Shown: positions 2,234-13,063 of the stretch, piece after piece | How the letters are laid out: each line of letters starts with the position of its first letter | Numbering within the stretch: position 1 is the stretch's first letter | Origin: Cupriavidus necator | Lineage (GTDB): Bacteria > Pseudomonadota > Gammaproteobacteria > Burkholderiales > Burkholderiaceae | DNA: 32,000 nucleotides | NCBI RefSeq assembly: GCF_016127575.1 | Contig: NZ_CP066020.1 | Span: forward strand, 420,001 to 452,000 | Direction of reading: 5' to 3' | The notes under the pieces: model-generated | Database searches by the model: none | What the model saw: only the letters and a program-made list of their open reading frames with translations | What the model was told of the DNA's origin: nothing | Translations under genes and position numbers: made by a program

Positions 2234-2263
2234 ACGTTTCATCCTGAATTTCACATGGAACGT
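2234..2263. promoter_or_regulatory. Imperfect inverted repeat ACGTTTCAT-N12-ATGGAACGT abutting the parA start; possible ParA/ParB operator
   Basis: The arms match 8/9. Type Ia ParA proteins carry an N-terminal HTH and autoregulate at an operator upstream of parA (established for P1/F). Assigning this repeat to that role is inference. Confidence 0.25.
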
Positions 2264-2268
2264 TGAAT

Positions 2269-3465
2269 ATGGTGGTGAAGAGCGAATTAACCGAGATTGA
2301 CCGGACTGTCACGATTGGTTCAATGAGTGACTTTTCGAAGAAGCTTCAAAAACTTACTGAGGAACTTCGCGAACATATCCTGGCACCTCGCCCTCGGAAA
2401 AGTCCGCCCACGTTCACCTCCACCCAGGTTGCCGAAATGTGCGGTATCGACCGTGCGCGGCTTCATTATCTGGCAACGAAAGACGGGAGCACACTTCCGG
2501 CCGGTGAGCTTCATGGGCGCGTACGCCAATTTACGCTTGGTGAGACTCGGAAGTGGGTTCAACAAGCTTCACAGGTGAAGCCGTCCCCGCTACTAAGAAA
2601 GGGCGAAGCGGATGGTCGCGTTCTGATTTCTGCCAACTTCAAGGGTGGTAGTTGCAAGACGACTTCGAGTATGTGCCTGGCGCAGGGATTAAGTTTGCGC
2701 GGCCGCAAGGTGCTGCTGGTTGACTTGGACCCTCAGGCATCGCTGACCGAATTGTGCGGCCTGTATGCCGAGAAGATGATTGTCGAGGAAAGCACCGTTC
2801 TGCCGTACATCTACAGCCCTGAAGACTTTACGCTTGAGAGCGTCATTCAGGAGACGTATTGGGATGGGGTTGATGTCATCCCTGCGCATCCATCTTTGTT
2901 CTCCGCCGAGTTTCATATCCCGGCGATGGCAAGCAAGTCGGCGAATTATCGCTTCTGGACGCTGTTACGTAAGGGCTTGGAGCCACTTCGAAAAAAATAC
3001 GACTATATCGTGTTGGATTCGGCACCTTCGCTATCCTACCTGACTATCAACGGCCTGATGGCTGCGGACGCCATGGTGATGCCTTTGGTGCCGGAAAGTC
3101 TCGACTTCATTAGCTCGGTATCGTTCTGGAGTCTGTTCTCCGATATGGCGGACAGCTTCAAGAACATCGAAGGAAACAAAACCTACGACTTTGTGAGCAT
3201 TCTGCTTTCGAAGGTTGACTATGGCGTAGCGTCTTCGGCTCCGATAGTTCGCTCCTGGGTACAACGAGCCTATGGCGATTGGATGAGCCCAATTGAAGTG
3301 CCGGCGAGCTCCGTGATGAGTAACGGGGCTCTCGCACTTGCGACGGTCTTCGACATTAGTAAGTTCGAGGGCAGCAACAAGACATTCCAGCGTGTGCGCA
3401 TTCCGTTCGACGAATATTGCCGTTGGGTGGATGAGTTTTACGCCGGAAAGTGGGAGGACGCTTAA
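2269..3465 (+). CDS. parA: Partition ATPase ParA, type Ia (long form with N-terminal HTH extension)
   Basis: ORF track 2263..3465 (TTG 2263; I prefer ATG 2269; the N-terminus is uncertain). Deviant Walker A NFKGGSCKTTSS, followed by VLLVDLDPQASLT and a length of about 400 aa. Immediately followed by parB. Confidence 0.9.
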   Translation: MVVKSELTEIDRTVTIGSMSDFSKKLQKLTEELREHILAPRPRKSPPTFTSTQVAEMCGIDRARLHYLATKDGSTLPAGELHGRVRQFTLGETRKWVQQASQVKPSPLLRKGEADGRVLISANFKGGSCKTTSSMCLAQGLSLRGRKVLLVDLDPQASLTELCGLYAEKMIVEESTVLPYIYSPEDFTLESVIQETYWDGVDVIPAHPSLFSAEFHIPAMASKSANYRFWTLLRKGLEPLRKKYDYIVLDSAPSLSYLTINGLMAADAMVMPLVPESLDFISSVSFWSLFSDMADSFKNIEGNKTYDFVSILLSKVDYGVASSAPIVRSWVQRAYGDWMSPIEVPASSVMSNGALALATVFDISKFEGSNKTFQRVRIPFDEYCRWVDEFYAGKWEDA

Positions 3466-4452
3466 ATGAATATGCGCAAGCGCATGCTGGAGCAAACCGC
3501 AAATTTGACTCCTGCTAATGAAATCAAAGTGGAAATCGCCCCCCAAGTTGCAGACCGGCCGAAAACTGCACCAGGGATGATGGCGGCCTTGAGTGCGGCA
3601 CAGCTTCGGATTCAAGAATTGGAGTCCCAAGGGGCTGCAAGCACCGTTCCGGTCGAGAAGATTCGGCCGAATCCCTGGCAGCCGCGGATAAAGTTTGACG
3701 AGAGCAGTCTCACTGAGCTCGCGGAGAGCATTAAGGAACTGGGCCTAATGCAGCCCATTCTCGTTCGACGAGTCACGCCGGACAACGGAGAATCCTATTT
3801 CGAGCTGATTGCCGGTGAGCGCCGTTGGCGCGCTCACCAGGTGCTGGGTCTACAAGAAATCAAGGCGCTCATCACGGATGCGTCAGATGCAGATATGGCC
3901 GTCCTCGCTTTGGCCGAGAATGTCAGCCGTGAAGACCTCACCGACTACGAAATTGGCAAGGCGATGCGCCGTGCCGAGAAGGAATTTCCAGACAGGAAGC
4001 GGATGGCTGAATCCATGGGGATGAGCCGGAGCACGCTCTATCGATATTTTGCCTTCGACAATCTACCCGAATTCATGCGTGTAGATCTGGAGAAGAACCC
4101 TTCGCTTTTCAGCGGTACCGCGGCAAGTGACACCTACGCCGTGCTCAAGAAGCATGGCGAGCCAGCTGTTGCAGCGGCTCGCGAGGTCTGGAAGCAACTT
4201 GTAGATGGTAGCCTTGAGCAGTCGAAGGTCGCCAAGCTGCTGGAGGCTTCGCTACTTCGTCGTGAAGCGACGCCTGTAACTTCCCAGCGTGACATTCATA
4301 AAGTCTATGCCGGCAAGACTCAGGCCGGCAGTATTACCAAGGACTCCGTGAGCTTTACCGTAAAGCTTAAAAGTGCTGTCCTGACTGCCGCTCAAGAGGA
4401 GCGGATACGGACGGTTATCAATGAACTTTTCGACGGAGGACCGCAACGTTAA
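3466..4452 (+). CDS. parB: Partition protein ParB (ParB/Spo0J N-terminal domain plus HTH)
   Basis: 328 aa. Motifs IRPNPWQPR, LMQPILVR, LIAGERRWRA and an HTH-like MGMSRSTLYRYF. GGGAGGA Shine-Dalgarno; the ATG directly follows the parA stop codon. Confidence 0.9.
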   Translation: MNMRKRMLEQTANLTPANEIKVEIAPQVADRPKTAPGMMAALSAAQLRIQELESQGAASTVPVEKIRPNPWQPRIKFDESSLTELAESIKELGLMQPILVRRVTPDNGESYFELIAGERRWRAHQVLGLQEIKALITDASDADMAVLALAENVSREDLTDYEIGKAMRRAEKEFPDRKRMAESMGMSRSTLYRYFAFDNLPEFMRVDLEKNPSLFSGTAASDTYAVLKKHGEPAVAAAREVWKQLVDGSLEQSKVAKLLEASLLRREATPVTSQRDIHKVYAGKTQAGSITKDSVSFTVKLKSAVLTAAQEERIRTVINELFDGGPQR

Positions 4453-6149: not shown

Positions 6150-8006
6150 CTAACTTTGGATGCTGTACAGCTTCGCCATGGCGGCAATACCGCGCCTGCG
6201 TTCCGCGCGGACATACAGCGAGGTCGTTTGCAGCGAGGCGTGGCCCAACAGCCTTTGGAGGACATCGGTGGGGATATCGTTGGCCACCGCGTGCGTGGCG
6301 AAGGTGTGCCGCAGCGCATGGGGCGCGGCCTTGCGCAGCAAGTGGCGCTCGGCCTCGTCAATCGGCAGGGTACTGTCTTCCGCGATGCGAAGCAGCGTGG
6401 TTGTCAGCACCCGGTAAAGCCCGTCTGGCGAAAATCCCTCTCCGCTCAGGACCGGCAAGCCCTCCCGCAGCGTCAGGTGCTTGCTGCGGGCGGTGCGCGT
6501 CGAGGGCAGCGACACCGGCGACAGCAACGCCAGATCCTGGTGCACGTCTTCAAAATCGTGGCCCCGATCGGCCCAGTGCGCCCGCAGCGCCTCGATCACG
6601 CGTGGCGGCAGGAACACCGTGCGCCATTTGCCGCGCTTGCCGAGCAGCGCCAACTCCCACAGGCCATCGGGGATGCCGGCCTGCTCGGGGACGGGCTTCA
6701 GGTGACTGCGGCGCGCGCGGGCGACCTCCTCCCGGCGCGCCCCACTGCAGCCCATCAGCAGCACCGCTGCGCGCGCTAGGCGACATTGCGCACCCGGTGT
6801 GTCGGCGTCCTTTGCGCTCAGCGGGCCGGCTGGCGCCGTCGCGCTGAACCTGACACAAAGCCGGTCGAGGAGGCCGTCGCGCCGCGTCAGCGACTCCCAC
6901 AGCTGACCGGGCAAGGCCTTGTCGATCGCCATCGGCACCTCTCGCTGCGCGATGATGGGATCCTTGACCATCAGCCAGGGATTGCCGCCCAGATAGCGCA
7001 CGCCCACCAGCCAGGCAAAGAAACCCCGCAGCACCAGCACCGCATAGCGCTGCGACTCCGGCTGGAGCGGGCCGGCGAAGGGGCGCCAGCGCGCGGAGGC
7101 GCGTGGCGCCTTGGTGCCGATCCACGCCGGGTCCGGCTGCGCCAGGAAGTCCTTGTAGCGCTCGCAGTCGTCGGCGCCCACGCTCGACAGCGCGGTGCGG
7201 CGAGCGCAGATGCACCAGAGCAGGAAGCGCTCCAGTTCCTTCTGGTAGGCGCGGGCGGTCTTGTCCCGCTCGCGGAAGCGGGATAGGTAGGCCTGCACGG
7301 CCTCCAGGTCGTCGCGTGCCGCGATCAGGCACCAGCCGGGCGCGCGATTGCGGCCCTCGCTGCCGTCGAGGGCCGGCACCACCCGCCGCACCTGCTCCAG
7401 CGGGACCAGACAGCTAGCGCCGTCCGCTCCCAGGTCCACGCGGTCCTCGCGCGGCGTGTCGTCGGCCACCACCAGGGTGCCCAGCGCTTCCGCCTGGGCC
7501 TGCAGCCACCGCTCGATCGCCCGTGCCTTGCCCGTGCCCAGCCGCGGCACCGGTAGATACCAGCGCTTGCCGCGCAACGTGATGTACGCCATCAGCTGCG
7601 CCAGCGTCTGAATGTCCTCCTGCCGCAACGCGCGCGACACGATGGGGCGGAACCAGGCGGACACCGGGTCTTCGGGCTGCGGCCGCGACACGTCGTGGTC
7701 GGCGGCGCGCACCAGGTAGTCAATGGCGGTCTTCGGCCAGCGATTGAAGCGCCGTGCATCCGCCAGGCTTGCCGACAGGTATGGATTGCTCAGGCAGACG
7801 CGTTCGACCAGATGGTCGCGCATCGCATCGAGCCGGGCCTCCAGCTGCGCCGGCGTGCCGATGCCGGCCTTGGCCAGCGCTTCCTCGTCATAGACGCGCT
7901 CGAGGATATGCGCGGTCGGAATGCGGTTGAGCCGAAAGCGCAGGGCCGTGAAGTCGGCGCGGGTATAGCGAATGACGGTGGTGGCGACCTGGTTGTGTTG
8001 GGCCAT
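6150..8006 (-). CDS. Tyrosine recombinase / phage-integrase-family protein, unusually long (618 aa) with a roughly 240-aa N-terminal extension
   Basis: The C-terminal catalytic domain shows GARREE (Arg I), HALRHTFATH (His-x-x-Arg), LLGHASLQTT (His/Trp position) and SLYV (Tyr nucleophile). A SAM-like core-binding segment ARAYQKELERFLLWC...CERYKDFL lies upstream. G+C is visibly higher than in the rep/par module to its left. Confidence 0.9.
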   Translation of the reverse strand: MAQHNQVATTVIRYTRADFTALRFRLNRIPTAHILERVYDEEALAKAGIGTPAQLEARLDAMRDHLVERVCLSNPYLSASLADARRFNRWPKTAIDYLVRAADHDVSRPQPEDPVSAWFRPIVSRALRQEDIQTLAQLMAYITLRGKRWYLPVPRLGTGKARAIERWLQAQAEALGTLVVADDTPREDRVDLGADGASCLVPLEQVRRVVPALDGSEGRNRAPGWCLIAARDDLEAVQAYLSRFRERDKTARAYQKELERFLLWCICARRTALSSVGADDCERYKDFLAQPDPAWIGTKAPRASARWRPFAGPLQPESQRYAVLVLRGFFAWLVGVRYLGGNPWLMVKDPIIAQREVPMAIDKALPGQLWESLTRRDGLLDRLCVRFSATAPAGPLSAKDADTPGAQCRLARAAVLLMGCSGARREEVARARRSHLKPVPEQAGIPDGLWELALLGKRGKWRTVFLPPRVIEALRAHWADRGHDFEDVHQDLALLSPVSLPSTRTARSKHLTLREGLPVLSGEGFSPDGLYRVLTTTLLRIAEDSTLPIDEAERHLLRKAAPHALRHTFATHAVANDIPTDVLQRLLGHASLQTTSLYVRAERRRGIAAMAKLYSIQS

Positions 8007-8390
8007 GGCAGTAGGAGTCGGCAGGTGGCCTCATCTTACCTGATAACAATATGCTGCCGTACTCTGTCCCGGATTGTCGCAGGCCACGTTGCGGTCGCGG
8101 AGTAGCATGGGGGACTCCCTGCGCAGCCCCACCGGCCGGGGCCACCAGACCACCGGGCTCGCGACCGGACACCGGAGGGAGGAGATCCCAGCCGCGCAGC
8201 ACCACCGGCAGGTAGCGGGGTGGTCGCCGGCGCATTTTGTGGCTACACTGGTGCTGTCCAACGGTCGAAAATGAGCTTGGCCGCGCTGGATTGCCATTCT
8301 CTTTCCTGGCCAGCGCCGTGCTTGCGGCGGACGCGCCGCCCCCGATCCCCGAAGTGAAGCCAGCAAAACCCGGCAAAATCCACAAAAATT

Positions 8391-8420
8391 CAAGCCTGAT
8401 AATACGCGTTATCAGGCTTG
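8391..8420. other. dif/cer-like core site: 12-bp perfect inverted arms around a 6-bp asymmetric spacer (CAAGCCTGATAA-TACGCG-TTATCAGGCTTG)
   Basis: Perfect 12/12 arms. The inner ends ...ATAA-N6-TTAT... match the layout of Xer-type sites such as E. coli dif (GGTGCGCATAA-TGTATA-TTATGTTAAAT). It sits in a locally AT-richer patch 385 bp upstream of the recombinase start. An alternative reading is a hairpin terminator for the minus strand (followed by AATTTTTG). Confidence 0.45.
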
Positions 8421-9013
8421 ATGGTAAAAGAGATCTATGGTGCACTTCCTCATTCGCCGCTCACACAACTAAAGAATGTAACGCTCGTCCGCGCGGCCGA
8501 ACCCTGCCGCCTGGTCGTTGGCCCCGGCCCTGTCACCATGATGGCGCGCGCGGGCCAGAAACCAAAGGGTCATCCTCCGCGGCGGGCAAGATCCGGCAGG
8601 GCGCGCGCACGCCGTGAAGTGTTATTACCGGCTAATCGAGGGCGGCCCACGGGGCCGGTGTTCCGCCGAGCCAGCTGGCCGCCTATACAGTCCGACAGCT
8701 GAGCCGCCCGCGGCTTTTTCACGGCCGTCGAAAGCGCCTCCCACGGAGCGGCGACTAGGCCAAGTGTGGCGCTGGCCAGGTGAACGGCACCTTGGGCGGA
8801 GTCTTTCTCTGGGACCTGGTGGTGCCAATTGGCAATCGCCGGGCGAGGAGGGCGTGGTTGTCTGCTGGCTGGAGGGCGGTGTAAGCGTTGCCGGATGGCA
8901 GAGGGAGGAATTCCGCCACATCGAATCCGCGTATGGCGAACTAGCCACAGGCACCAGGCCGTTGTAAGATCACGGCAACTAATAACCCAAGCAGTTTAGG
9001 TTTGGTACAATCA

Positions 9014-9263
9014 ATGCCGACGGTCCTATCGATTTTCGGCCTGCGCGTGGTGATCTACCCCAACGACCATCGCCCGGCCCATGTCCACGTGATGGGCAAA
9101 GGCTGCGAAGCCGTCTTCAACCTGCACTGCCCGGCGGGGCCGCCGGAACTGCGCGAGAACTATGGCTTTTCGGCCAGGGACCCTGGGGAAAATCATCGAC
9201 GCACTGGTCGCCCATCTGGCGGCGTTGTGCCGCGACTGGAGAGGCATCCATGGAAATTACTGA
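9014..9263 (+). pseudogene. DUF4160-family small protein gene with an apparent 1-nt insertion (frameshift) near 9181-9183
   Basis: Frame 1 from ATG 9014: MPTVLSIFGLRVVIYPNDHRPAHVHVMGKGCEAVFNLHCPAGPPELRENYGFSARD, the DUF4160 hallmark (YxNDHxPxHxH). Skipping one C of CCC 9181-9183 continues as LGKIIDALVAHLAALCRDWRGIHGNY* (stop 9261-9263). That gives a family-typical 82 aa overlapping the next ATG by 14 nt. As written, the frame instead runs on to 9364 through arginine-rich nonsense. Confidence 0.6.
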
Positions 9264-9675
9264 CGACGTGCTGGCCGCTGCGAATGCGCGCGGCGCGGCC
9301 AAAAAGGCCGCCTTCCCGGCGGTGGTGTCGGTGCGCTATGACCGGCGCGTCTCGCGCGTGGTGATCGCGCTGGCGTCCGGGCTCGAACTGGCGTTTTCGC
9401 CCAAGGCGGCGCAGGGTCTGGAACACGCCCACCCGGCGGACTTGGCCGACGCCGAGATCAGCCCCTCGGGGCTCGGCATCCATTTTCCGCACCTGGACGC
9501 GGATCTGTATCTGCCGGCGCTGCTCGAAGGTTTTCTCGGCTCCAAGCGTTGGATGGCGTCAGAGCTGGGCAAGCGCGGAGGCGCAGCCTCGACGGCCGCC
9601 AAGGCGGCGGCCGCCAGGGAAAACGGTAGGCTTGGCGGACGCCCCCGCAAAAGCAAGTTGCCAGCCGCCGCATGA
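9250..9675 (+). CDS. DUF2442-family protein with a basic C-terminal tail
   Basis: 141 aa. The segment VVSVRYDRRVSRVVIALASGLELAFSPKAAQGLEHAHPADLADAEISPSGLGIHFPHLDADLYLPALLEG fits the DUF2442 pattern. The tail ...AAARENGRLGGRPRKS is typical of small DNA-binding or antitoxin-like partners. DUF4160-DUF2442 is a recurrent gene pair. Confidence 0.7.
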   Translation: MEITDDVLAAANARGAAKKAAFPAVVSVRYDRRVSRVVIALASGLELAFSPKAAQGLEHAHPADLADAEISPSGLGIHFPHLDADLYLPALLEGFLGSKRWMASELGKRGGAASTAAKAAAARENGRLGGRPRKSKLPAAA

Positions 9676-9714
9676 AACAAGGAGCGCCCCTTGACGCTTC
9701 AACAGTGACCAACC

Positions 9715-10013
9715 ATGACGCACTATCGTTGCGAAATTGACCCGCGCCCGGCCGAACTGGGCGGTGGTTGGCGCCTTCAATTGCTCGAAGATGGCGAGGA
9801 AGTTGGCGGCGCCGTGTTTCCCGCCGATCCCAATGCGGACCCGCATGCCGGCATGGTGTGGTTCAACGCGCTCGCGGAGCCGGAACGCGCCAGGCGGTTG
9901 GAGCAGGGCTGCAGTGCCCGGCCTGTAGACGCCTGGGCGGCCTGCCACCGCTGGAAGCCTATAACGACGCGGAGGCCACGGCCCAGGGCTGGCTGGCGTC
10001 ACGGCCTCAATAA
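9715..10013 (+). pseudogene. Small hypothetical protein, probably frameshifted
   Basis: The N-terminal part from ATG 9715 is MTHYRCEIDPRPAELGGGWRLQLLEDGEEVGGAVFPADPNADPHAGMVWFNALAEPERARRLEQ.... The listed 214-aa ORF then overruns the next well-formed gene. A second frame ends ...LEAYNDAEATAQGWLASRPQ* at 10013. A -1 shift around 9930-9950 would give a product of about 99 aa. This is a subjective call. Confidence 0.35.
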
Positions 10014-10075
10014 AAGGCTAAGGCGCCCAAGGGTACACCGCGGTAGCTCATCGGCAGACGGCCCCATCGCTCTGA

Positions 10076-10336
10076 ATGGAGACCACCAATTTGCCCCAGC
10101 GACTGCCCGGTCCGATCCGGATCGTGAATGGTGTCATCAGCCTGCTGGCATTCTTTGCCGGACTGTACTTCCTGCAGAGTATGTATCTGGCGTCCACCGA
10201 GCACACGCCGATCTTAATGGGGAAGTACCAAAAGCTGGTGCAATACGAAAACCGCCCCATCCTGTATCTGTTCTCTGCGACATTCACCGCGGTCGCGGCC
10301 GCTGCCGCAACAGGGTGGGCGTTTGGGGGATGGTGA
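10076..10336 (+). CDS. Small membrane protein, two predicted TM helices, unknown function
   Basis: 86 aa. Hydrophobic stretches IRIVNGVISLLAFFAGLYFL and ILYLFSATFTAVAAAAATGWAF. Third codon positions are G/C-rich. No obvious Shine-Dalgarno. Confidence 0.5.
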   Translation: METTNLPQRLPGPIRIVNGVISLLAFFAGLYFLQSMYLASTEHTPILMGKYQKLVQYENRPILYLFSATFTAVAAAAATGWAFGGW

Positions 10337-10452
10337 AGGCACTTTTGGGTCGTCCATAGCGAAACCATGCTGCCAAACTGCTATTGAAGGAAAACGCCCA
10401 GTGGTTATCTGGCAAAGCCGAAAGGGTTCGCCATCAACCGTCGAGGATCGTC

Positions 10453-10683
10453 ATGCAGCGCCTGCAGCTTGTTATCAGTCCCGCCCACTTCGTAGATCGC
10501 TTCGGTCGCCGCGTCTTGACCAATGCTGGCCAGCCTGGCATGGACGGCAAGGAGGGGGTCGGTTCGACCACTGAGGAACAGCGCAACCGCGTGGCGGCCG
10601 CGATCTATGCCAATTGCGAGCACCTGGACAATGCGCAGCTCGATGAGATCGTTGCGTGGGTGCGGTTGTACAGGAAGAAGTGA
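10453..10683 (+). CDS. Small hypothetical protein (76 aa)
   Basis: ATG 10453 is preceded by GAGGA at a 5-nt spacing (the track ORF starts earlier, at TTG 10384). G/C-rich third positions in ...TTEEQRNRVAAAIYANCEHLDNAQLDEIVAWVRLYRKK*. No recognisable family. Confidence 0.5.
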   Translation: MQRLQLVISPAHFVDRFGRRVLTNAGQPGMDGKEGVGSTTEEQRNRVAAAIYANCEHLDNAQLDEIVAWVRLYRKK

Positions 10684-10814
10684 CGGCCGCGATGTTGGGG
10701 ACGCCGCTGTGGCCTTGGGATACGTCTGGGGCGGCGCAGGCCATTGGCTGTCCTAGCTAGTCCTAGCTGCGCGCTGACTTGTTTGAAAACGCCCCGACAC
10801 CATAGGAAGGCCAG

Positions 10815-11108
10815 ATGCAGAGAATCACCGAAGCCGTCGATTGCGCGCTGTGCCACATGCCGGCATCGCGCTGGGCATTGCGGCAGAGCTCGGATGGCTA
10901 TATGTATGACTGCCCGGCCTGCGGCGGGCGCTACAGCATTGGCACGTCGGCATTGGCGCGGGCGAAGAATGGAGAGGTGCCGCCCGGCCTGCTGGCAGAC
11001 GTGCGCCACGCCATTGCCCGCGGCGACATCCCCCGGGTCGGCAGGACTGCGAGCGAATGGCATCCACTGGACGTCGTGGGACGCCAGGACGCGGATGCCG
11101 ACCTTTGA
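10815..11108 (+). CDS. Small zinc-ribbon-like protein (CxxC...CxxC), unknown function
   Basis: 97 aa: MQRITEAVDCALCHMPASRWALRQSSDGYMYDCPACGGRYSIG.... AGGAAGG Shine-Dalgarno upstream. Good G/C third-position bias. Confidence 0.6.
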   Translation: MQRITEAVDCALCHMPASRWALRQSSDGYMYDCPACGGRYSIGTSALARAKNGEVPPGLLADVRHAIARGDIPRVGRTASEWHPLDVVGRQDADADL

Positions 11109-11459
11109 GTGAAAACGTCCCTAAATCGCACCGGGACAAACGCTATGCCAGAGGACGACCGCGAACGCCAGTTTGGCGACACCATACCGCCTCCCCGCAA
11201 TCGCTTCAGGGAGCGGATCTTGATGGTCCGACTTGGGCCGATCCCAGACTCCACGGCCCACCACCACCATTCCTCTTCTTGTTGACGAACGTGGGCGAGC
11301 CCGCCAGCCTCGTGCCGGCTGCACGAGCTCACCCGCCTGTGATGGCGATCGGACTAGCGTGTCCAGCAGGACAAGGCAGGCCGGTCGTAATGAAATGGTC
11401 AGCCCGATCCCCCGATGCATCGCCTAGGCTGGAGGGGTCACTTTCCGGAGGAGGCTGCC

Positions 11460-11507
11460 ATGAGCGAAGTCACGTTGATCGGCATTGATCTCGGCAAACA
11501 TATGTAA
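11460..11507 (+). mobile_element. Relic of an IS110-family (DEDD) transposase gene: first 15 codons only
   Basis: GGAGGAGG Shine-Dalgarno, then ATG...: MSEVTLIGIDLGKHM*. The xTLIGIDLGK start (first catalytic Asp) is characteristic of IS110/IS1111 transposases. No further similarity in any frame downstream. Confidence 0.35.
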
Positions 11508-12002
11508 AGCTGCTACCTCGAGGCTGCACAAGAGATTCGAGCCGATTGCCATAACCCACTGCGACAGGTCACCTGGTAGGGGCTCAGCGTCGCGCCAAGT
11601 GTGGCAGCCGTGGCGTCGGCCAGCGAAGAAAGCGCCCCGCGGCGGTGCAGATTTCCGGCGGGTTGCCGAGAAAGGAGGCTCAAATGTCCTCACAGGAAAA
11701 CAGCGGCCATGTCGAACAAGGCAATGGCAACCGTGTCGAAGCTGGCGCTAGCGGGGCTGCGGCATGGCGCCGGTGCGGTAGCCGGAGCCCGGCGCGGCGC
11801 CAAGCAGATACGCAGGCTTCTGCCGGCAGACTCCTTCGCGCGTTCGGCTGCGCAGCGCCGCTGCGCCGTCAGTCGTCACGCGGGCAAATTTCATTTGTTG
11901 GCAGCGATGGCGAGCAACGCTCGAGGGAGCGATGTAGATACGCGTTGAAACATGGATCTCTTATGTTTATACTTGTATCAACATTGTTTGGAGGCATCTA
12001 TT

Positions 12003-12257
12003 ATGCGAAAAAGCGCAACCCTGACGATTCAAAAGTGGGGCAACAGCTTGGCGGTTCGAATCCCCACTGCGGTGGCTCGTTCTGCACATTTCGCCGAGGG
12101 CCAGGAAGTGGAGGTATCCGTCGATGAGATTGGCGTAACTGTTCGACCAGTTGGTCGTCGTGCCCTCACTCTCGCGGAAAAGCTTGCTCTGTTTGACCCC
12201 ATCAAGCACGGCGGCGAAGCTATGGCCACGCAGCGTGTCGGCGCGGAGGCCATGTAA
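12003..12257 (+). CDS. mazE: Antitoxin, AbrB/MazE/SpoVT-type
   Basis: 84 aa from ATG 12003 (GGAGG Shine-Dalgarno at 11990-11994; the track ORF starts further upstream). MRKSATLTIQKWGNSLAVRIPTAVARSAHFAEGQEVEV is the swapped-hairpin AbrB/MazE motif. The stop overlaps the next start (ATGTAATGG). Confidence 0.85.
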   Translation: MRKSATLTIQKWGNSLAVRIPTAVARSAHFAEGQEVEVSVDEIGVTVRPVGRRALTLAEKLALFDPIKHGGEAMATQRVGAEAM

Positions 12258-12619
12258 TGGCGGGCAAGCTATGGGCGCCTGAACGACGCGACATTATTTG
12301 GATCGACTGCAATCCGCAAGCCGGCCGCGAGATGAAGGATATGCATCCGATGCTGGTTCTTTCACCGCGGCCGTTTAATGAAAGGACTAGTATTGTGATT
12401 GGCTTGCCGATGACTACGGCAGCCTACAACGAGACCAATCCGTTTGCGATCAAGCTTCAGGGACCGAAGGGAAAGGACAGCTACGTTCTGGCTCATCAAC
12501 CCAAGTCGTTTGACTGGCGAGCCCGAAACGCAAAGGCTCACCCCTGGAAGCAAGCGCCCTTGGAGGTTTTTGCTGCCGCTTGCGAGCAGCTAAACCAGAT
12601 TATCGCGATCGCGGAGTAA
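12257..12619 (+). CDS. mazF: Toxin, MazF/PemK-family endoribonuclease
   Basis: 120 aa. PERRDIIWIDCNPQAGREMKDMHPMLVLSPRPFNERTSIVIGLPMTT...YVLAHQPKSFDWRAR matches the PemK/MazF fold pattern. Translationally coupled to mazE. The cassette is visibly AT-richer than its surroundings. Confidence 0.85.
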   Translation: MAGKLWAPERRDIIWIDCNPQAGREMKDMHPMLVLSPRPFNERTSIVIGLPMTTAAYNETNPFAIKLQGPKGKDSYVLAHQPKSFDWRARNAKAHPWKQAPLEVFAAACEQLNQIIAIAE

Positions 12620-13063
12620 CCTCCATGCTTGACCGCATGGCGCGTTGTCTTGGCGAACACGCCGAGCCGTCGCAAGCTGGTCACTGCCAGCGCACACATG
12701 CGGCTCGACTGGATGAAGCCAGCCACGGTAGACGTAGACGTGATCAGCACATCAACCTGACCACCGAGCAGATCATTGATGGCCGACCCGGCGCCCTTGT
12801 ACGGCACGTGCTGCAGCGGCACGCTGCTGTTCTTGTCGAGCACAACGCCTATCAGGTGCAACAGCGTGCCGATGCCGGGCGTGGCGTAGGTGATCTTCTG
12901 CAGTTGTGCCTTGGCCTGTGTGGCCAGCGCCGGGCAGTGGGCGGGACTCGTCGCGCCGCGCGGTCCGCGTGCCGAAGTCACTGCGCCGCCCAAGGTTCGC
13001 GCTGCGGAACTGGGCGCCGGCCTGCGTGAGCGTCAATGCTGGCGGCGGCCCCCCCGGCAGCAT
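12620..13063 (-). pseudogene. Internal fragment of a Bug/TctC-family solute-binding protein gene, truncated at both ends and frameshifted
   Basis: Minus-strand frames read ...AQFRSANLG / ...ALATQAKAQLQKITYATPGIGTLLHLIGVVLDKNSSVPLQHVPYKGAGSAINDLLGGQVDVLITSTSTVAGFIQSSRMCALAVTS.... These align with the central third of the three intact Bug proteins in this window (e.g. HIPYKGSGPAMSDMLGGQVD). There is no N-terminal signal peptide region and no C-terminus. Homology stops at the mazF stop. Confidence 0.75.

Follow-up and report, generated by a model that had tools for sequence, protein, structure and literature searches.

The palindrome at positions 8390–8421 of the window, the 32,000-nucleotide stretch of DNA analyzed here, is probably the core recombination site of the DUF3701-containing tyrosine recombinase encoded beside it, and would probably serve the resolution of plasmid multimers or cointegrates. 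We hold this reading with moderate confidence. An earlier note on the same DNA had put the element forward as a candidate core site of the adjacent 618-aa enzyme, and that proposal is supported by the finding that 19 loci keep the palindrome upstream of the orthologous gene. The window matches the megaplasmid pHG1 of Cupriavidus necator H16 (NC_005241.1) at 100% identity, with window position 1 corresponding to position 388857 of that record.

The 30-mer CAAGCCTGATAA-TACGCG-TTATCAGGCTTG is located at 8391–8420, with the letters reported earlier. It had been described as two 12-bp inverted arms around a 6-bp non-palindromic spacer; the arms in fact pair perfectly for one more base on each side, giving a 13-6-13 element in which the gene-proximal arm TCAAGCCTGATAA (8390–8402) and the gene-distal arm TTATCAGGCTTGA (8409–8421) are identical to each other in inverted orientation. 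The spacer TACGCG (8403–8408) is indeed non-palindromic and reads CGCGTA on the recombinase-sense strand. This is the sole inverted repeat with arms of at least 12 bp and a spacer of 3–9 bp in the whole 32-kb window, for which 100 first-order Markov simulations give an expected mean of 0.01, and a pattern search of the window returned one match versus 0.00 expected. The local setting is also as described, with a G+C content of ∼0.60 over the surrounding 300 bp versus 0.65–0.75 in the flanks, and with 384 bases (∼385 bp in the earlier description) between the palindrome and the ATG of the recombinase gene. Scans of the whole window for tRNA, tmRNA and Rfam families at the gathering threshold gave no match, and an Rfam search of 8200–8800 at E ≤ 1 gave no known RNA. 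The lack of a tRNA or tmRNA match indicates that there is no tRNA-type att context.

The palindrome lies within an interval, 8007–9091, that is empty in the RefSeq annotation. The gene order is repA, parA (2263–3465), parB (3466–4452) and then the 618-aa gene on the minus strand (6150–8006), convergent with the plus-strand parA–parB partition genes (2263–4452); its product is annotated in RefSeq as WP_041688756.1, 'phage integrase family protein'. The partition genes form a conserved backbone context, and recombinase–parAB synteny is found on seven plasmids, pHG1 and six further ones. The protein contains an N-terminal DUF3701 domain (PF12482, residues 105–181, E = 1.2e-24) and a C-terminal Phage_integrase match (PF00589, E = 1.7e-12). 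The R-K-H-R-H pentad and the tyrosine nucleophile of tyrosine recombinases are intact (R424, K457, H563, R566, H589 and Y598), and these residues are invariant in an alignment of 12 sequences that includes Tn4401 TnpR. Among named or solved proteins the Xer-type enzymes (XerC, XerD and XerA) are nearest, in the catalytic C-terminus only, and Tn4401 TnpR is 30.7% identical over residues 108–590, 78% of the pHG1 protein. Judged by DUF3701 and this homology, the pHG1 recombinase is a member of the 'TnpR subgroup' of simple tyrosine recombinases, in which DUF3701 is N-terminal to the core-binding and catalytic domains and which is named after the presumed Tn4401 resolvase (Smyshlyaev et al. 2021, PMC8138268).

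A tblastn search with the recombinase identified full-length relatives on 275 plasmid records, nearly all of Burkholderiales origin, and loci were sampled across the identity range, each oriented on its recombinase gene. A scan of genome contigs with the recombinase alignment was swamped by the generic PHxxRHTF motif and gave few useful matches. A palindrome of the same design is present upstream of the orthologous gene in 19 loci that span 34–78% protein identity and nine genera plus metagenomes: four Cupriavidus plasmids (76–78%), C. necator NH9 (57%), Polaromonas, Thauera and Azonexus (51–55%), Collimonas, Massilia, Janthinobacterium, three Caballeronia, the Burkholderia/Paraburkholderia representatives B. 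glumae and P. acidisoli, and Limnohabitans (38–43%), and two metagenome contigs (34–41%). The earlier note had suggested looking for ATAA-N6-TTAT palindromes near orthologous genes, and this comparison recovers the same arms, spacer length and polarity down to 34–38% identity. Because the palindrome is retained upstream of orthologs in all 19 loci, its reading as a core site is supported.

In the sense of the gene, the consensus of the site is nnnnCCTGATAA-N4(T/C)A-TTATCAGGnnnn. The inner TGATAA is kept in 19 of 19 left arms and in 18–19 of 19 right arms, and the CC/GG arm positions are retained in 15 of the 19 loci. The spacer is 6 bp in every locus except that of Collimonas, where it is 7 bp; its sequence varies between loci, but its last two bases are always (T/C)A on the gene-sense strand. 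Site polarity relative to the gene is identical throughout. The site lies 76–1088 bp from the ATG: 310–414 bp in pHG1 and its closest relatives, 100–240 bp in the group of 40% identity and ∼1 kb in NH9 and Limnohabitans. On the gene side, nearly all 19 loci have a T-rich flank next to the proximal arm; Cupriavidus sites show AATTTTT... and those of the 40% group show CGTTTAATGG...TAAAAT. Apart from these elements, upstream sequences cannot be aligned between most loci, and the conservation is therefore specific to the site. The element thus has, on sequence, the inverted arms and the short, asymmetric and variable spacer of a core site, and it travels with the recombinase gene.

The motif has relatives at its margins. 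A variant, CYGCTAA-N6-TTAGCRG, occurs in two further loci. No such palindrome was found within 2.5 kb upstream of two operon-embedded Burkholderia recombinase genes, or within 1.3 kb upstream of more distant DUF3701 recombinases (C. metallidurans BS1 and Methylomonas). A Ralstonia Tn3-family element with a DUF3701 recombinase carries CGATAA-GCGATC-TTAGCG at −86, which hints that the site design may be shared across the TnpR subgroup.

The stretch between core and gene, 300–400 bp in length, was compared in an alignment of the five closest Cupriavidus loci, where conserved islands are found amid divergent DNA. Three tandem 10-bp units with phased A-tracts, CCAGCAAAAC CCGGCAAAAT CCACAAAAAT (8360–8389), abut the gene-proximal arm and are aligned in the Cupriavidus loci; on the recombinase-sense strand they constitute the T-rich flank AATTTTTGTGGATTTTGCCGGGTTTTGCTGG, and the C. 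oxalaticus X32 plasmid has five such units. A conserved flank block, ...GGCTTCACTTCGGGG in the recombinase sense, lies ∼40 bp from the core at 8343–8359 (minus strand), and the islands include the CACTTNGGG block. At 8233–8250, again on the minus strand, there is a leader box, CAGTGTAGCCACAAAATG in the recombinase sense, in which AGTnTAGC...AAA is invariant in the five loci and which takes the conserved form CAGTGTAGCC(A/G)(C/A)AAAAT among them.

A half-site upstream of the recombinase ATG had likewise been reported. It is present, with the octamer CCTGATAA at 8039–8046 (three copies in the window versus 0.38 expected) forming part of a third arm-like 12-mer, CTTACCTGATAA (8035–8046), that ends 28 bp upstream of the ATG, and only the five closest Cupriavidus loci keep it, at −40 to −43. 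This half-site repeats the gene-proximal arm in direct orientation, ∼340 bp away from the core; on the recombinase-sense strand it reads TTATCAGGTAAGAT and contains a −10-like TAAGAT. Its location at the gene promoter suggests autoregulation. All of the accessory features in the Cupriavidus loci are on the gene side of the core. A small ORF between core and gene is interrupted by stops in all frames in relatives, indicating that there is no conserved leader peptide, and the window contains no equivalent of the 119-aa gene beside the C. taiwanensis site.

An arm-like half-site over the promoter region of five Cupriavidus loci is also what would be expected if the palindrome were only an operator, to which the recombinase or another regulator binds, together with the −40 half-site, for transcription control, with the crossover site located elsewhere. 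Several other features point in this direction. A consensus scan identifies a promoter-like TTTACC-18-TATTAT across the pHG1 palindrome, and the conserved YA followed by TTAT creates a −10-like TATTAT in most sites. In the 40% group, where the palindrome is close to the ATG (100–240 bp), the TTATCA of the proximal arm is 18 bp from a −10-like TAAAAT box, an arrangement that could be the recombinase promoter. However, the palindrome is 310–414 bp from the ATG in the pHG1 clade and ∼1 kb away in NH9 and Limnohabitans, and Cupriavidus already has a separate half-site at the promoter region; this distance and the second element indicate that the palindrome has a role beyond repression there. An operator would also leave unexplained why the spacer is fixed at 6 bp with free sequence, why polarity is conserved and why homology breaks at the arm edges, as described below. 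We therefore consider an operator-only function doubtful. Resolution sites commonly double as operators, as is established for Tn3 res, and an operator activity would consequently complement the core-site function that we favor. Likenesses to what we take to be Fur, LexA, FNR, ARG and sigma-54 boxes were dismissed on spacing.

Homology between related plasmids ends at the element itself. B. glumae p79s3p, B. gladioli Lv-StA and B. glumae BGR1 bglu_3p have an identical 30-mer, including the spacer CTCGTA, and 92–97% identity continues from there into the gene; immediately beyond the gene-distal arm, starting with the first base, the three plasmids are unrelated. In this Burkholderia comparison, the match starts at query position 388 or 389, corresponding to the arm edge, in 21 records. 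For pHG1 and the C. oxalaticus T2 plasmid, homology covers 8386–8612, beginning 5 bp outside the proximal arm and extending across the site, and the common part comprises an identical spacer and ∼190 bp on the gene-distal side. The gene-proximal side of T2 differs from that of pHG1 and contains mazEF. With the Burkholderia break on the distal side and the pHG1/T2 break on the proximal side, either flank would appear to be exchangeable at the element. The breakpoint pattern is suggestive, in that reciprocal site-specific recombination between like-armed sites would leave such a pattern, but sharp homology boundaries can also arise from unrelated insertions beside a conserved module. A search for close relatives of the C. 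taiwanensis site region, aimed at further breakpoints, returned none, and none of the loci compared shows a natural recombination product, in which an inverted or excised segment would lie between two sites. The mazEF/palindrome junction of T2 was also considered as a circular permutation of pHG1 8386–12631 and rejected, there being no site-like sequence at pHG1 ∼12631.

The same enzyme–site pair could instead have integration or module exchange as its main outcome, with replicon fusion or the capture of foreign DNA on the gene-distal side, similar to attI or attP. We think this unlikely. The gene-distal flank is unrelated between close plasmids exactly from the arm edge and is different in every Cupriavidus plasmid, as this model would predict, and the identical spacer in pHG1, T2 and X32 would make mutual recombination possible. 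However, no attB-like second copy, hybrid site or integrated form was found in the DNA scanned, with the host chromosome lying outside the scan, and constant synteny with parAB on large low-copy plasmids fits a maintenance function better. Resolution is therefore the outcome that we prefer for the pHG1 core site.

The outer arm positions vary in a symmetric manner. In an alignment of 17 sites, 88% of arm positions are complementary and changes on both arms are seen in 6 of the 12 position pairs. Compensated cells number 27, versus 10.5 ± 2.1 in shuffled alignments (none of 500 shuffles was as high), and the covariation signal is lost when the partner column is shifted. The 12-bp arms are perfect in seven sites, and these use six different outer tetranucleotides. 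The target sites of Cre-like recombinase orthologs are known to differ in their arms and yet remain symmetric, and the arm symmetry seen here is what a symmetric protein-binding site would show if it co-evolved with a reader that acts as a homodimer. Symmetric covariation would fit a protein site and an RNA hairpin alike, so that symmetry does not separate these two readings.

Such a hairpin could be a minus-strand intrinsic terminator that takes no part in recombination and shields the recombinase gene from transcription arriving from upstream. The earlier note had set a terminator against the recombination site, and the element does have a 13-bp stem and a 6-nt loop followed by AAUUUUUGUGG on the minus strand, is called by a consensus scan and dominates the predicted fold. 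In nearly all orthologous sites the stem leads into T-rich DNA, compensatory changes preserve the pairing, and C. taiwanensis SWF66294 and Thauera have a gene in the same direction that ends a short way upstream. What this model fails to account for is the invariance of the inner arms, the fixed spacer and the polarity. The six inner stem pairs do not change in sequence over 34–78% identity, and the loop length and the last two loop bases (YA) are fixed, none of which is required of a terminator; these features consequently count against it. In pHG1, moreover, there is no annotated minus-strand gene upstream and the next genes run in the opposite direction, and the neighboring gene is divergent in C. 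pinatubonensis HN-2 and C. necator N-1. The flank in the 40% group is a specific CGTTTAATGG with three T only, the X32 plasmid has the half-site and A-tracts without the hairpin, and only 5 of the 13 stem pairs are G-C. A terminator with no other role is improbable, whereas insulation of the gene is possible as an additional role of the palindrome.

The element had been called dif/cer-like, with host XerCD named as a possible enzyme. The description is apt for the architecture, with its 11/12-6-11/12 geometry and inner ATAA/TTAT as in dif, but not for the arm sequence, since only ATAA/TTAT is in common with the predicted H16 dif sites, AAAGCGCATAA-TGTATA-TTATGTTAAAT and TGCGCGCATAA-TAAGTG-TTATGTCAAAT (Kono et al. 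2011, supplement). That the palindrome is a plasmid dif/cer-type substrate of host XerC/XerD is very improbable given these unlike arms, because the conserved XerD arm TTATGTTAAAT has only TTAT in common with TTATCAGGCTT, distinct XerC and XerD arms are absent, a perfect palindrome fits a single recombinase rather than a XerC/XerD pair, and the site tracks the plasmid recombinase gene, not the host, across nine genera.

The association was also examined in the reverse direction, by an exact-pattern scan of metagenome contigs. This reverse association is weak: the scan returned 120 stretches, and the recombinase lies downstream, at the usual distance and polarity, in only two of them; many of the 120 are isolated or repeatedly sampled loci. 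About 27 contigs represent one Gallionellaceae chromosomal locus (group A) with arms ATTCCTGATAA/TTATCAGGAAT, variable N4TA spacers, a T-tract flank, a variable left flank, a conserved 137-nt leader and a 74-aa ORF. This near-identical site is next to toxin–antitoxin modules: in the chromosomes of Gallionella and Nitrotoga it is positioned between a GGDEF/EAL gene and HipBA/HicB modules. No tyrosine recombinase is encoded within 10 kb, and the 74-aa ORF matches no Pfam or NCBIfam family and no plasmid. Group A is unlikely to be the dif site of a chromosomal terminus because the called genes on both sides all run the same way. With no recombinase nearby, the motif at this locus could be served in trans by a related enzyme, or another protein could read it. 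Mainly because group A is unaccounted for, our confidence in the core-site interpretation of the pHG1 palindrome is kept at a moderate level.

The mechanism we propose for the pHG1 site is as follows. Two recombinase monomers would bind the inverted nnnnCCTGATAA arms and would exchange DNA strands across the asymmetric spacer of 6 bp, which would set the direction of the site. Dimers or cointegrates of pHG1 would thereby be converted to monomers, as part of the rep–parAB maintenance backbone. The one-sided DNA between core and gene, with its phased T/A-tracts, two boxes and half-site, would act as an accessory and regulatory region, through which the recombinase probably represses its own gene. 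Binding, strand exchange, resolution rather than integration, and autoregulation are what we infer from the comparisons above.

A bolder and rather dubious extension is that nnnnCCTGATAA-N4YA-TTATCAGGnnnn might be the shared target of a Betaproteobacterial family of recombinase–site pairs that do more than resolve dimers. On megaplasmids the site could be a point at which accessory DNA is swapped onto a constant rep–par–recombinase backbone, with the Gallionellaceae site as a trans-acting counterpart and the same logic extending to the Tn4401 res site. Such swapping, if true, would explain why homology ends exactly at the arm edge.

The type of mechanism is well known; the site family is previously undescribed and belongs to an abundant, uncharacterized recombinase subgroup. 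In the searchable full-text literature we found no description of the pHG1 site or of the DNA target of any TnpR-subgroup member. The presumed resolvase of Tn4401, the main blaKPC carrier, is a member of the subgroup, and a conserved polar 12-6-12 site with a free spacer offers a concrete substrate for biochemistry. The site also points to a way in which megaplasmids stay monomeric, among them pHG1, the carrier of the hydrogen-oxidation genes in C. necator H16, a strain used in biotechnology. If the sharp boundaries reflect site-specific exchange, the site would help to account for the mosaicism of Burkholderiales megaplasmids, and the family could supply naturally diversified recombinase/site pairs for genome engineering.

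By analogy, the design of the pHG1 site is that of a standard tyrosine-recombinase core, as in dif, cer, loxP, FRT and IRS. It resembles the Xer sites (dif and cer/psi) in its ∼11-bp arms, 6-bp center, inner ATAA/TTAT and proposed role in dimer resolution, and cer/psi in having accessory DNA on one side of the core; the catalytic C-terminus of the recombinase is also most similar to XerC/XerD/XerA among named or solved proteins. Unlike Xer sites, it is a perfect palindrome, implying one recombinase, and that recombinase is plasmid-encoded, 618 aa in length and equipped with an N-terminal DUF3701. In the Cre/loxP system of the phage-plasmid P1, one self-encoded tyrosine recombinase acts at an adjacent site with perfect 13-bp arms and an asymmetric spacer to resolve plasmid dimers, and ResD/rfsF is likewise a self-encoded single enzyme with a symmetric site by its gene on a low-copy replicon. 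The pHG1 system shares with Cre/loxP the perfect 13-bp arms and the single adjacent recombinase. It differs in that the spacer is 6 bp rather than 8, the protein is twice as large and of another subgroup, and the core comes with a third half-site and a flank conserved on one side.

Transposons provide the other close parallels. In the TnpI/IRS system of Tn4430, an inverted-repeat core is located just upstream of the gene with extra recombinase-binding motifs on the gene side, and resolution has built-in directionality (PMC2847244). The pHG1 site resembles the Tn4430 IRS and other Tn3-family tyrosine-recombinase modules in the position of the core just upstream of the recombinase gene and in having an extra arm-like motif on the gene side; only one such motif is recognized, however, it is ∼340 bp from the core, and the module belongs to a plasmid backbone rather than a transposon. 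For Tn4401, whose TnpR is of the same protein subgroup as the pHG1 recombinase, the 109-bp tnpA–tnpR gap contains ATAA-TCGTTA-TTAT, with a spacer ending in TA and a T-tract flank, 49 bp upstream of tnpR; the searchable literature yielded no description of it. The palindrome of this Tn4401 element is weak (TGAAATAA / TTATCGCG), and the element, unlike the pHG1 site, belongs to a transposon. Of the systems compared, the pHG1 site appears closest in logic to Cre/loxP and ResD/rfsF, and closest to Xer in its inner arm bases and in the catalytic domain of its predicted enzyme.

Three Burkholderia plasmids carry an identical 30-bp site (L217, 2312–2341; L226 and L227, about 1500–1530; each in its own numbering). 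The leader that separates this site from the recombinase gene is 92–97% identical among the three plasmids, and past the gene-distal arm their sequences are unrelated from the first base on. The plasmid backbones also differ, being of MOBH and MOBF types.

On pHG1, the gene-distal side of the palindrome (the 13-6-13 inverted repeat at 8390–8421, a candidate recombinase core) continues into a non-coding block at 8421–8612 that is 76–81% identical to the DNA that the C. oxalaticus T2 plasmid has beside its copy of the palindrome. C. necator N-1 and Cupriavidus sp. KK10 also carry the right part of the block (8525–8612), on large replicons. The block is G+C-rich, contains internal inverted repeats and has indels whose lengths are not multiples of three; a comparison with Rfam gave no match. 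Two small addiction-type gene pairs, one DUF4160/DUF2442 and one mazEF, lie near the pHG1 maintenance region at 9002–9675 and 12003–12619. On the T2 plasmid, a mazEF pair 86% identical to that of pHG1 directly abuts the palindrome.

A sigma-70-like promoter match (TTTACC-18-TATTAT, 8399–8428, minus strand) overlaps the palindrome, with the −10-like TATTAT made up of the conserved spacer end (TA) and the TTAT of the gene-proximal arm. Toward the recombinase gene, about 70–100 bp of the pHG1 leader (within 8100–8230) are missing from the leaders of the other four Cupriavidus loci, and this pHG1-specific DNA contains a 19-bp direct repeat, GCGCAGCCCCACCGGCCGG at 8121–8139 and GCGCAGCACCACCGGCAGG at 8194–8212.

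A pHG1-type site on C. oxalaticus X32 plasmid unnamed4 (L003, 4001–6106) is interrupted by an insert of ∼2.0 kb, which carries a tyrosine recombinase of 292/318 aa together with a truncated IS91-family transposase and has GCGTT at both junctions. No DUF3701 recombinase gene lies next to this split site; parAB lies 570 bp from it, and the 10-bp A-tract unit is present in five copies, compared with three in pHG1.

Near-identical palindromes, ATTCCTGATAA-N4TA-TTATCAGGAAT, occur in Gallionellaceae/Nitrotoga chromosomes (the ‘group A’ contigs among L096–L215; L221, a Gallionella chromosomal contig, about 9840–10225), with spacers that differ among contigs, a flanking T-tract, a variable left flank and HipBA/HicB modules as neighbours. 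A conserved 74-aa ORF that matches no known family lies 137 nt downstream, and no tyrosine recombinase was found within 10 kb.

Those Tn3-family transposons that use a DUF3701 tyrosine recombinase carry weaker ATAA/TAA-N6-TTA(T) elements directly upstream of its gene. Orthologous recombinase genes are also preceded by a second motif class that has GCTAA in place of GATAA and retains the 6-bp spacer, as in CTGCTAA-TTCACA-TTAGCAG on B. cenocepacia J2315 pBCJ2315 (L012, about 3673) and ATGCCGCTAA-GTCGTG-TTAGCGGCAT in Caballeronia udeis (L018, 1515–1540). Of the transposon elements, that of Tn4401, TGAAATAA-TCGTTA-TTATCGCG, lies at position −49 in the tnpA–tnpR intergenic region (L011, 4159–4267), and the Ralstonia element, CGATAA-GCGATC-TTAGCG, at position −86 (L229, about 2150–2180); both are candidate res cores.
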